Below, piece after piece: positions 9,491 to 41,505 of a DNA stretch of 64,000 nucleotides; positions within the stretch are counted from its first letter, which is position 1; the number at the start of each line of letters is the position of its first letter. Made by a program: the position numbers and the translations under genes. This DNA comes from Candidatus Nomurabacteria bacterium. GTDB taxonomy: Bacteria; Patescibacteriota; Minisyncoccia; Phycocordibacterales; UBA9973. Location: the NCBI GenBank assembly GCA_023267375.1, contig JAHFNJ010000002.1, positions 23,634 through 87,633 of the forward strand. The letters are read 5' to 3'. The notes under the pieces were generated by a model, which searched no databases, was not told the DNA's origin, and was given only the letters and a program-made list of their open reading frames with translations.

Positions 9491-9575
9491 CGGAGACGGT
9501 GAGATTCGAACTCACGAGGGCTTGCGCCCTGCCTCCTTAGCAAGGAGGTACGTTAGACCACTCCGACACGTCTCC
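9491..9575 (-). tRNA. tRNA-Ser (anticodon GCT), type II with a long variable arm
   Basis: The reverse complement folds into a cloverleaf. The acceptor stem is GGAGACG/CGTCTCC. The anticodon arm is CCTCC-TTGCTAA-GGAGG. The variable arm is 16 nt and the T-arm is GTGAG-TTCGAAT-CTCAC. CCA is not encoded. Confidence 0.7.
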
Positions 9576-9670: not shown

Positions 9671-9755
9671 GGAGGCGTGGATGAGTGGTTTAAATCAACG
9701 GTTTACTAAACCGTCGTTCCGCAAGGAACCGTGAGTTCGAATCTCACCGCCTCCG
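9671..9755 (+). tRNA. Type-II tRNA, Ser-like, with an apparent anticodon ACT
   Basis: The acceptor stem is GGAGGCG/CGCCTCC and the D-stem is GAT/ATC. The anticodon arm is ACGGT-TTACTAA-ACCGT. The variable arm is GTTCC-GCAA-GGAAC and the T-arm is GTGAG-TTCGAAT-CTCAC. The anticodon position is unusual (see findings). Confidence 0.55.
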
Positions 9756-9767
9756 CAAATGAAAATT

Positions 9768-9787
9768 GCCCCTTTTGGGGCTTTTTT
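9768..9787 (+). terminator. Rho-independent terminator, bidirectional-capable
   Basis: GCCCC-TTTT-GGGGC is followed by TTTTTT directly after the tRNA. Confidence 0.6.
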
Positions 9788-9942
9788 CATTTGGGTGGCG
9801 AGCGAAGTGCCTGCGCACTTCGCGAGTGAGATTCGAACGACGGAATGTCATTTTTTCAGCAGAAAAAATGCATGAGTCGGTGGCTAGACCAAAAATTTCT
9901 GACGAGAAATTTTTGAGTCGAAGCCGAACTCCCGCCTCCGCT

Positions 9943-37746: not shown

Positions 37747-37763
37747 TTGCTGCCAGACTTGGA
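37747..37763 (-). repeat. 17-bp direct repeat of the tRNA-Gln 3' end (ttgctgccagacttgga), an att-like scar
   Basis: The 17-mer is identical at 37747-37763 and again at 37930-37946, where it forms the 3' end of the tRNA-Gln. A T-arm-like fragment (ccgttcgaatccaagac) lies between the copies in inverted orientation. Confidence 0.6.
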
Positions 37764-37932
37764 CCACGAGTACGTTTTTCTCCTTCGACTCAAAATTTGC
37801 CAGTCGCAAATTTTGGTCTAGGCACCGGCTCGAATTTTTCTCTGGTGAGAAAAATATACTCCGCCGTTCGAATCCAAGACAAAAGCGCGTTCAGCGCTTT
37901 TTTCCGGCAGCATTCCTCGCTGAGTTCGTTTG

Positions 37933-38003
37933 CTGCCAGACTTGGATTCGAACCAAGATGACGACTTTCAGAGAGTCGCATCCTACCATTAGATGATCTG
38001 GCA
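37933..38003 (-). tRNA. tRNA-Gln (anticodon CTG)
   Basis: The reverse complement is TGCCAGA-TC-ATCT-AATGGTA-GGAT-G-CGACT-CTCTGAA-AGTCG-TCAT-CTTGG-TTCGAAT-CCAAG-TCTGGCA-G. It has a U1:A72 pair, typical of bacterial tRNA-Gln, and CCA is not encoded. Confidence 0.75.
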
Positions 38004-38097
38004 ATAGGAGTAGAATATAGCTTTTTAAGCAAAAAGTAAACCATGAATACCGCTCGACTCTTTTCTTTGCCACATCTCAGCATAAGTGGAACTCCTT

Positions 38098-39823: not shown

Positions 39824-41263
39824 ATGTTTTCTAAAAAAACTTTTATTATTGTCACTATATTCTTTATTACGGCAACTTTACTCACGCCACTCTTTTTAGT
39901 TTCGGCTGTTGACGAGGGGAGTGTTCCACCAGCAGATGATGGTTCGGGAAGCGTTACTCCTCCTGCGGATCCCAAAACAGTCGATCCTGTCCCGTCTGAC
40001 CCAGGTGGATCAGGATCGACTGACCCTACTCCCGCACCCATTGTTACTGATCCTGCTCCACCAGCCAGTGATCCGGTCCAACCAGCTCCTTCACCAAAGG
40101 AGACAAGTACTCCTCCCTCTACGCCAGTTTTTACTACTGGGGGATCGACACAGCCAACTATTGCTCCCGAGGTATCAACTGAAGACTTTTCTGCAGTTAA
40201 TCCTACGACTCAAAATCCAGACTCATCAAAAAATAATCTTGCGTTGATTATTGGGGCGCTCGCGCTTTTTGGTGGAGGAGTATTTGCATTTAAGGCGAAT
40301 CAGAAAAAGAATGATGGCCCATGCGATACAATAAAAACAAAGCTTGAGCAGAAGAAGACTGAATTGGCAAACGTTGATCAAAAACTTTCCCTGCAAGAGA
40401 TTGCTAAACAAAAATTGGCAGAAGAGATTGAGAATAAAAAAGAAAGTCTTAAAGAAAAAGCAATTACCAAAGTGAAAGATAAGACGCTCGAAAAGATAAA
40501 TAGTGAAATTCTCAAAAAGACTATTGAAAAAGCTGAGAAGGGGAAAGAACTATATGACACGCTGGTTGAAAAGAAAGATGAAGCCGAGAAGTTGATTGAA
40601 GTTTTAAAAGCAAAACGGCAAGGACTTTCAAGTGAAGTGCAGAAACTCGAATCGGAATATAAGGTGTGTGTGGCTGGCGTAACGAGTGCCTCAGTTGTTA
40701 AAAAAGGGGGAATAGTACTTCCGTTACTGGGAAGTATGCCAAAAAAAATCTATATCACGGGTGTTTCTGGAACAGGGAAATCTAGTATAGCTTTAAAACT
40801 AGCAGAAAAAGGAATTCCCTCAATTGATATAGATGAAATAAAAGATTTATGCAAATGGGTACACAAGGACACAAAAGAAATTACTCATTGGTATCCTGGG
40901 GTCGGCGGTCAGTTCTTTGAGTCCTATAAGTATATTTGTGATAAAGAAAAATTGATTAGTTTAATGGGAGAACATAAAAATGAAACTGTTGTAGTTGTAG
41001 GACTCGCAGATAATCAATCAGAATTTTTTGATTTATTTGATACGGTATTTCTATTTCAGTGTAAACCAGATGTTTTTTTGAAAAGAATTACCGATAGAAC
41101 AAATCATGATTTTGGAAAACATGATTCCGAAAAGAAAATGATTTTGGGTTGGTACAAGGATTTTGAAAAAGAAGTGTTAGAAAAGAAAGCAATCCCAATA
41201 GATACTGAAGCTCCACTTGAGAAAGTGCTCAAAGTTGTTATTTCTGAGATTGGAAAACTATGA
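39824..41263 (+). CDS. Single-pass membrane protein: signal peptide, Pro/Thr-rich extracellular region, TM helix, coiled coil and a cytoplasmic P-loop kinase-like (AAA_18/shikimate-kinase-like) domain
   Basis: The signal reads MFSKKTFIIVTIFFITATLLTPLFLVSA. The P/T/D/S-rich low-complexity stretch is about 110 aa. The TM helix is LALIIGALALFGGGVFAF. The Walker A motif is KIYITGVSGTGKSSIALKL, and a Walker B-like hhhhD motif is VVVVGLAD. Confidence 0.5.
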   Translation: MFSKKTFIIVTIFFITATLLTPLFLVSAVDEGSVPPADDGSGSVTPPADPKTVDPVPSDPGGSGSTDPTPAPIVTDPAPPASDPVQPAPSPKETSTPPSTPVFTTGGSTQPTIAPEVSTEDFSAVNPTTQNPDSSKNNLALIIGALALFGGGVFAFKANQKKNDGPCDTIKTKLEQKKTELANVDQKLSLQEIAKQKLAEEIENKKESLKEKAITKVKDKTLEKINSEILKKTIEKAEKGKELYDTLVEKKDEAEKLIEVLKAKRQGLSSEVQKLESEYKVCVAGVTSASVVKKGGIVLPLLGSMPKKIYITGVSGTGKSSIALKLAEKGIPSIDIDEIKDLCKWVHKDTKEITHWYPGVGGQFFESYKYICDKEKLISLMGEHKNETVVVVGLADNQSEFFDLFDTVFLFQCKPDVFLKRITDRTNHDFGKHDSEKKMILGWYKDFEKEVLEKKAIPIDTEAPLEKVLKVVISEIGKL

Positions 41264-41505
41264 CCTTTTTCATTTATATTCTCGAATGCGTTGACGCGAC
41301 ATTGTATGTCGGCTCTACGAATGATCTTGAAAAGAGAGTGCATGCGCATAATCACTTAAAGAGTGGTGCGCACTATACCAAAATTCGCCGGCCGGTGGTG
41401 TTGAAATATTCTGAAAAAGTACGAACGTATGCAAAAGCTCGAAGCAGGGAAGCAGAATTGAAGAGATTGAGTCGGGGAGAGAAACTCAAGTTAATAAAAA
41501 AATAA
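41260..41505 (+). CDS. Small GIY-YIG nuclease-superfamily protein (UPF0213/YhbQ-like)
   Basis: It reads IYILECVDATLYVGSTNDLEKRVHAHN...YTKIRRPVVLKY.E..R..A..RE...K, the GIY-YIG motifs. Its ATG overlaps the upstream stop (ATGA). Confidence 0.7.
   Translation: MTFFIYILECVDATLYVGSTNDLEKRVHAHNHLKSGAHYTKIRRPVVLKYSEKVRTYAKARSREAELKRLSRGEKLKLIKK

Follow-up and report, generated by a model that had tools for sequence, protein, structure and literature searches.

The window, as we call the whole stretch of 64,000 nucleotides analysed here, is chromosomal DNA of a Patescibacteria (Paceibacteria) bacterium and carries on its minus strand a complete tRNA-Gln(CUG) gene without an encoded CCA, followed by CAA. 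A 17-mer (TTGCTGCCAGACTTGGA on the plus strand) is found there in two exact copies, at 37747-37763 and at 37930-37946, 183 nt apart from start to start and with 166 nt in between. The copy at 37930-37946 comprises the last 14 nt of the tRNA, that is the 3' strand of the T-stem, the 3' strand of the acceptor stem and the discriminator G, together with the trailing CAA. No third copy is present in the window with up to two mismatches allowed, and none of 100 dinucleotide shuffles contained a 17-mer match, which places the exact repeat beyond chance. The duplication of the tRNA 3' end described by the original prediction is thus confirmed, as is the inverted T-arm fragment that it had noticed between the copies: gttcgaatccaag at 37866-37878 (plus strand) is the exact 13-nt reverse complement of tRNA positions 53-65.

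The same arrangement occurs in four independent assemblies of the organism, which excludes an assembly artefact. All same-species contigs are occupied, with no empty site and no presence/absence polymorphism found among them; an empty version of the site would read from the tRNA end directly into GTTAAGATATTT. Two apparent exceptions were rejected. A strain difference at L003 proved to be a gene-calling artefact at a contig end (L003 and the window are 99.98% identical in sequence), and breaks of Logan contigs inside the tRNA, which might have indicated an empty-site variant, are explained by a tRNA 3' half common to several species in the sample.

A Pfam scan of the genes around the site identified an unremarkable set, with CTP synthase, EamA, DUF817, a TrmB regulator, a lipid desaturase and hypothetical proteins, and no integrase near the repeats. 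Homologues of a 162-aa neighbour are found in unrelated contexts and were uninformative about synteny. The window also holds an 81-aa GIY-YIG gene at 41260-41505. Public annotations of the same contig call a 97-aa ORF at 37790-38083 (minus strand), overlapping both the tRNA and the region between the repeats; this ORF is almost certainly spurious, the non-coding element having been mis-annotated as a protein by gene callers. The suggestion that the surrounding 35.8-42.3 kb form an island was not borne out, as the interval has no further repeat copies, shows a mild GC dip and is arranged identically in same-species contigs.

In the orientation of the tRNA, the parts of the locus follow in the order a (tRNA 3' end), b (spacer), a' (inverted copy), c (structured core) and a (direct copy):

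37933-38003, minus strand: complete tRNA-Gln(CUG) gene (Rfam tRNA model, 56.7 bits; ARAGORN, 37932-38003)
37930-37946, minus strand: a1, first 17-mer copy (14 terminal nt of the tRNA and the trailing CAA) and left boundary of the insert, read from the sequence
37912-37929, minus strand: b, spacer from the tRNA end to the inverted arm, in relatives often with a terminator-like hairpin
37903-37911, minus strand: a'-left, GCTGCCGGA, complementary to the acceptor 3' strand plus GC (TCTGGCAGC), 5' strand of helix P1 (alifold, pair counts)
37881-37901, minus strand: hairpin hpA, AAAAGCGC-TGAAC-GCGCTTTT, which splits the inverted arm into two halves (7 of 7 pairs compensatory across 19 elements)
37866-37878, minus strand: a'-right, CTTGGATTCGAAC, exact reverse complement of tRNA positions 53-65 (T-loop and T-stem 3' strand), 5' strand of helix P2
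37835-37854, minus strand: core hairpin P3, TTTTTCTC-ACCA-GAGAAAAA (6 of 6 pairs compensatory; MFE structure)
37791-37815, minus strand: core hairpin P4, CAAAATTTGC-GACTG-GCAAATTTTG (MFE structure)
37764-37791, minus strand: conserved 3' segment of the core, GAGTCGAAGGAGAAAAACGTACTCGTGG (alignments A1-A3)
37747-37763, minus strand: a2, second copy of the 17-mer, 3' strand of P2 and P1 and right boundary of the insert
37749-37912, minus strand: whole element a'-c-a, as matched by covariance model R1 (150.3 bits, this sequence being in the training set)

The core of the window copy belongs to one type (type A), and a common fold emerges from nineteen elements of this type. P1 pairs the left half of the inverted arm with the acceptor segment of the downstream copy, and P2 the right half with the T-stem segment of that copy; hpA comes next after P1, and P1 and P2 together enclose the hairpin-bearing core. 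The two helices mimic the acceptor and T stems on a continuous 3' strand, and in a single strand the a':a helix is predicted to reproduce the acceptor stem of the neighbouring tRNA stacked on its T-stem, thereby closing the core. Across the type-A set (n = 19), the share of paired cells is 94.8%, and both sides have changed in 18 of 35 pairs; for the a':a pairing in P1 and P2, where the stem has the sequence of the tRNA gene, the paired cells amount to 94-97%. The type-A covariation score is 0.313, compared with 0.149 for shuffles (0 of 500 reach 0.313) and 0.04-0.09 for slid partners. P4 shows compensatory changes relative to loci L080 and L091 and to a further copy next to a tRNA-Ser gene (below), and hpA is terminator-like in appearance on both strands. 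The minus strand of the element (37749-37911) folds with a minimum free energy of -68.1 kcal/mol (z = -6.7), its opposite strand with -60.9 kcal/mol (z = -5.5). Non-Watson-Crick pairs on the tRNA-sense strand comprise 41 G.T against 5 A.C, or 14 against 5 once two conserved U.G pairs are set aside, a wobble bias that is compatible with RNA as well as with single-stranded DNA. No Rfam family matched any element at E-values up to 5-10, the only matches being to true tRNAs, and ARAGORN reported no tmRNA. The interval 37747-37929 is an intact non-coding structured module of ~165-185 nt and not a decayed scar.

To determine how widely this arrangement recurs, we compared the 22-nt tRNA 3' end with one genome per species and obtained 101 loci, nearly all bearing titles of Patescibacteria lineages (three are labelled otherwise). 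Many of the loci carry, 3' of tRNA-Gln(CUG), an inverted copy at +17 to +59 followed by a direct copy of 15-22 nt at ~+100 to +190. A uniform test for an inverted and then a direct copy within 330 nt was applied to all tRNAs of the fetched loci. Both copies in this order were present at 21 of the 98 evaluable tRNA-Gln(CUG) genes, an inverted copy only at 7 and a direct copy only at 8, whereas 25 other tRNA genes in those loci (Thr, Ala, Trp, Gln(UUG), Ser(GCU)) yielded both copies in no case and a direct copy only in two, every locus except the window having been chosen via tRNA-Gln. A metagenome scan added 19 further loci, arrays included, of which two are false positives. At least three sequence families (A, B and C) can be told apart among the cores between the copies; they have the closing helix in common, and type B combines it with a covarying internal hairpin. 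The length of the repeat differs by core type, from 15 to 22 nt.

Several loci showed further peculiarities around the tRNA. In L033, L054 and L084, a copy of the tRNA-Gln's own 3' half, starting from the anticodon loop (42-49 nt), follows 23-48 nt after the gene, and in the half-copy of L084 a type-C core replaces the 5' part of the T-arm. L099, on a contig labelled Opitutaceae, has a row of T-arm and 3'-end fragments resembling several different tRNAs at ~0-230 nt past the pattern match. The tRNA-Gln of L067 has 9 nt of leader that pair with the trailer and lengthen the acceptor stem (GCCCATCGC ... GCGATGGGC). Lastly, L050, L107, L056 and L079 share a non-coding motif 3' of the tRNA-Gln or of the element (ATGCTAAGTCAGG.GACTGACA.GCATA ... 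GGCATACCGGCTGAGAGCGG), which in L050 had no Rfam match at E up to 5.

Occupied and empty versions of the site could be compared in four pairs of species: L034/L041 (insert of 166 nt), L050/L107 (145 nt), L033/L083 (73 nt) and L056/L079 (193 nt). In each pair, the flank that follows the second copy in the occupied locus and the flank that follows the tRNA in the empty one are homologous from equal offsets, which indicates that the repeat marks the exact ends of the insert. The tRNA-Gln site is used repeatedly. L133 contains two elements in tandem, L121 a type-B element followed by a DHFR-like ORF (+140 to +680 from the tRNA end) and a type-A element, and L136 a type-A element, a GHKL-ATPase gene together with a C5 methyltransferase gene (450-3470) and then a type-C element; in L134, too, cargo lies between elements. 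Different core types thus co-occur in a single locus or array. In arrays, decay has spared only the last ~10 nt of the upstream tRNA-end copy, and the inverted arm and the downstream copy are intact. A small GIY-YIG protein is encoded as cargo between repeat copies in L060 (tRNA end to +428). Given the occupied/empty pairs and the reused site, the part of the original prediction that saw an integration footprint at the tRNA 3' end stands; its attribution to a lost or reduced tyrosine-integrase element does not, as the family is intact and covarying and no integrase was found.

The arms of the element in L134 form a mosaic. Its T-stem arm agrees with the downstream copy, both being unlike the local tRNA variant, and its acceptor arm follows the local tRNA. 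This agreement of arm and copy against the local tRNA indicates that the arms are part of the element and move along with it.

The covariance model R1, built from type A, was run on the 64-kb window and gave two element-grade matches, each directly 3' of a tRNA; two marginal matches (11.7 and 8.4 bits) both fall on the tRNA-Gln gene itself. The second element-grade match, at 9796-9936 on the plus strand (45.9 bits, E ~1e-11), lies behind a tRNA-Ser gene:

9671-9756, plus strand: tRNA-Ser, anticodon ACU (ARAGORN; alignment)
9757-9941, plus strand: second element, whole (R1; sequence)
9768-9787, plus strand: terminator GCCCCttttGGGGCTTTTTT within the spacer
9794-9800, plus strand: a'-left, GGTGGCG, with one mismatch to the tRNA-Ser acceptor strand
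9801-9823, plus strand: hpA, at the junction where the Gln copy also has it
9824-9838, plus strand: a'-right, GAGTGAGATTCGAAC
9850-9869 and 9890-9915, plus strand: P3 and P4, with compensatory changes relative to the Gln copy
9929-9941, plus strand: direct copy, CTC-CCGCCTCCGC, equal to the tRNA-Ser end (10 of 10)

Within the right half of the inverted arm, GTGAGATTCGAAC (9826-9838, 13 nt) is the exact reverse complement of the T-loop and T-stem of tRNA-Ser (13 of 13), and the core is ~75-80% identical to the Gln copy, as judged by eye over the aligned core. The core is therefore conserved while both arms appear to follow the adjacent tRNA, Gln or Ser, as suggested by this one clear second tRNA and by the L134 mosaic. 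A search for further copies linked to tRNA-Ser, via homologues of an ATP-grasp neighbour, returned relatives with a canonical tRNA-Ser(GCU) alone and without an element.

The tRNA-Ser(ACU) at 9671-9756 is itself unusual for bacteria in having A34. Compared with the canonical tRNA-Ser(GCU), which lies head-to-head with it at 9490-9575 (minus strand), it is divergent in the D arm, the anticodon stem and the variable arm, and related genomes have the GCU gene alone, without tRNA-Ser(ACU). Beside this tRNA pair, ~300-9400 of the window is a probable genomic island with genes for a T5orf172-domain protein (2121-2732, minus strand), a large serine recombinase (3535-4854, plus strand) and an ADP-ribosyltransferase-toxin-like protein (5090-6841, plus strand); the GC content is 0.32-0.36 at 4-8 kb and ~0.42 elsewhere.

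A motif screen detected no tyrosine recombinase motif in the window or in ~120 related loci, and no integrase motif lies within ~2.6 kb downstream of the 101 tRNA-Gln genes. The only recombinases seen are large serine recombinases, one in L053 and the one at 3535-4854 of the window; the two proteins are 28% identical and neither is associated with the element, so that a link between them and the element was rejected. The L053 gene (1207-2760) runs into tRNA-Gln(CUG) from the opposite strand and ends within its 3' part. The a'..a pattern had no matches in viral contigs, and BLAST comparison of the element with phages and plasmids gave no match. The 17-mer, proposed earlier as an attP to be sought on circular elements or phages, had 16 matches in viral contigs, all of them chance matches inside coding sequences of a few phage groups, and none extends past the 17-mer. 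In ~1 Mb searched with the covariance model, no copies were located away from tRNA 3' ends or arrays there. Neither was a larger element with the same core present in ~1 Mb of related loci or in viral, phage and plasmid collections, a limited search space, and no excised or circular form of the element was seen.

Taking these results together, we give about even chances to the reading that in Patescibacteria (Paceibacteria) the element is a non-autonomous insertion module, specific to tRNA 3' ends and moved in trans. Under this proposal, recombination at the 3' boundary of the tRNA gene would fall within the 15-22 bp that element and tRNA gene share and would be catalysed by a recombinase supplied in trans, and the tRNA would stay intact because the element brings its own copy of the tRNA end. 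By analogy with integron attC and CTX phage attP sites, the folded a':a helix, which copies the target as a hairpin, may act as the recombination site, and the order a-b-a'-c-a may be what integration of such a folded site leaves behind. Against the proposal stand the failure to link any recombinase to the family or to see an excised form, the lack of copies in viral, phage and plasmid data and the occupancy of all same-species contigs. A further point against it is that a double-stranded circle of ~180 bp is an awkward recombination substrate; by the same analogy, this size would suit a single-stranded intermediate better than a double-stranded one.

A different reading, possible but on the unlikely side, is that of a structured tRNA-like small RNA gene whose a':a helix imitates the acceptor/T-stem minihelix for RNase P, RNase Z or the CCA-adding enzyme. 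A read-through transcript would then be cut or processed, the repeat would be needed as a tRNA-like 3' end, and mobility would be secondary or absent, although such a function and mobility of the element can hold together. The strong covariation of the stems, the continuous 3' strand on which P1 and P2 mimic the acceptor and T stems, the better folding of the sense than of the antisense strand (by the energies given above) and the enrichment of G.U-type pairs on the tRNA-sense strand, with the two conserved U.G pairs of P2 alternating with U-A, are all in line with an RNA. However, no Rfam family matches, and in many copies the terminator in the spacer immediately precedes a', a position at which a promoter would not fit in and which also argues against simple co-transcription with the tRNA. 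Moreover, several core types share one locus or array, the element occupies only about one third of the tRNA-Gln loci, and the empty sites are precise, all of which are features of insertion and unlike a housekeeping RNA.

We consider it improbable that the element is what an integrase-borne island or prophage has left behind, namely attL, attR and attP-arm fragments of a tyrosine-integrase element after near-total loss of its DNA. The direct repeat of the tRNA 3' end does begin in or next to the T-loop, which is reportedly a classic sublocation for integrases, and both the duplications of 42-49 nt from the anticodon loop in L033, L054 and L084 and the cargo-bearing intervals between repeat copies would suit such an origin. 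Independent decay, however, would not yield one architecture of 165-185 nt with compensatory stems in dozens of species; in addition, the loci lack an integrase motif, the viral, phage and plasmid data lack an attP, and the only recombinases seen are the unrelated large serine recombinases.

Even less probable is a transposon-like origin in which staggered cutting, in the style of casposons or CRISPR-repeat integration, duplicated the target site, so that the long repeat would not be a recombination core. While the repeat flanks the insert exactly and arrays with a repeated 'a' look like repeat-spacer arrays, the copies in L134 differ and the right one matches the inverted arm of the element, which means that it is borne by the element and not copied from the target; furthermore, the length of the repeat varies with core type between 15 and 22 nt, and the neighbourhood showed neither a Cas1-like nor a transposase gene.

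A chance repeat or a decayed tandem tRNA duplicate (pseudo-tRNA), to which TGCCTAGA (37816-37826) and GCGACT...AGTCG lend a weak resemblance to the 5' acceptor strand and the anticodon stem of a tRNA, has a negligible probability and is refuted by membership of the region in a conserved family, by the shuffles for the 17-mer, by the silence of the Rfam tRNA model there at E up to 10 and by a non-significant alignment of the tRNA 5' part with the spacer (56 of 2,000 shuffles gave an equal score).

Returning to the insertion module moved in trans, a bolder version of it, which we regard as speculative and rather unlikely, would make the hairpin-forming elements the boundary sites of an integron-like cassette platform at the tRNA genes of CPR bacteria. 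The arms would then serve as a re-writable guide to, or mimic of, the target, the folded strand (DNA or RNA) would be read by a putative recombinase, and the core would have been retargeted from Gln to Ser by a change of both arms.

tRNA genes are classic landing sites of mobile DNA, and to our knowledge the known users carry an integrase. The elements described here form a widespread, integrase-less structured family of ~180 nt in the little-studied Patescibacteria, which copies the end of the adjacent tRNA in both orientations, with arms matched to two different tRNAs within one genome and with arrays that include cargo genes. If the arms determine the target, the element would be a compact site of insertion with natural retargeting and would hint at how the streamlined CPR genomes acquire genes. 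On a conservative reading, it is still a new structured non-coding family absent from Rfam, and we found no description of such elements in the literature.

Compared with known systems, MITEs and REP-type palindromes are similarly small and non-coding with inverted ends and strong hairpin potential, but the elements here are, in the ~1 Mb searched, found at tRNA 3' ends only and not dispersed, and they are flanked by a tRNA segment of 15-22 nt instead of a short fixed target duplication. With tRNA mimics, such as the tRNA-like domain of tmRNA, viral tRNA-like structures and tRNA-derived SINEs, they share an acceptor and T-stem helix built from the two ends of the unit and a GGAUUCGA-type motif beside the T-stem strand. 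They differ from these mimics in having no Rfam or ARAGORN match, in the replacement of the T-loop by ~100 nt, in the exact copying of the neighbouring tRNA and in being site-specific, not dispersed. The attP of CTX phage and of IMEX likewise has two inverted target-like sites tens of nucleotides apart that can fold into a hairpin imitating the target, and these elements carry no integrase either; their target, however, is dif and their recombinase XerCD, whereas the elements here target a tRNA 3' end and come without an attached phage genome, and for them a single-stranded intermediate is suggested by analogy.

Parallels also exist to CIMEs and other att-flanked non-autonomous elements, which are also non-coding, have att direct repeats at the 3' end of a gene, lack a recombinase of their own, accrete in tandem and reuse their site. 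CIMEs are deletion derivatives of known ICEs without a conserved fold, whereas for the ~180-bp elements here no parent was found, their hairpins covary and they also carry the target in inverted form. Integron attC sites undergo recombination in the form of folded single strands. Like the elements here, they are imperfect palindromes (60-140 nt for attC) with structure conserved over sequence, which form cassette boundaries and arrays with promoterless cargo and 'empty' units. The differences lie in the anchor, which here is a tRNA gene and not attI, in arms set by the adjacent tRNA, in a multi-hairpin core, and in the absence of both IntI and the R''/R' consensus (RYYYAAC / GTTRRRY), since the arms consist of tRNA sequence, in which GTTCGAA has C at the first R position. 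We place the elements among att-flanked non-autonomous insertion elements or attC-like sites.
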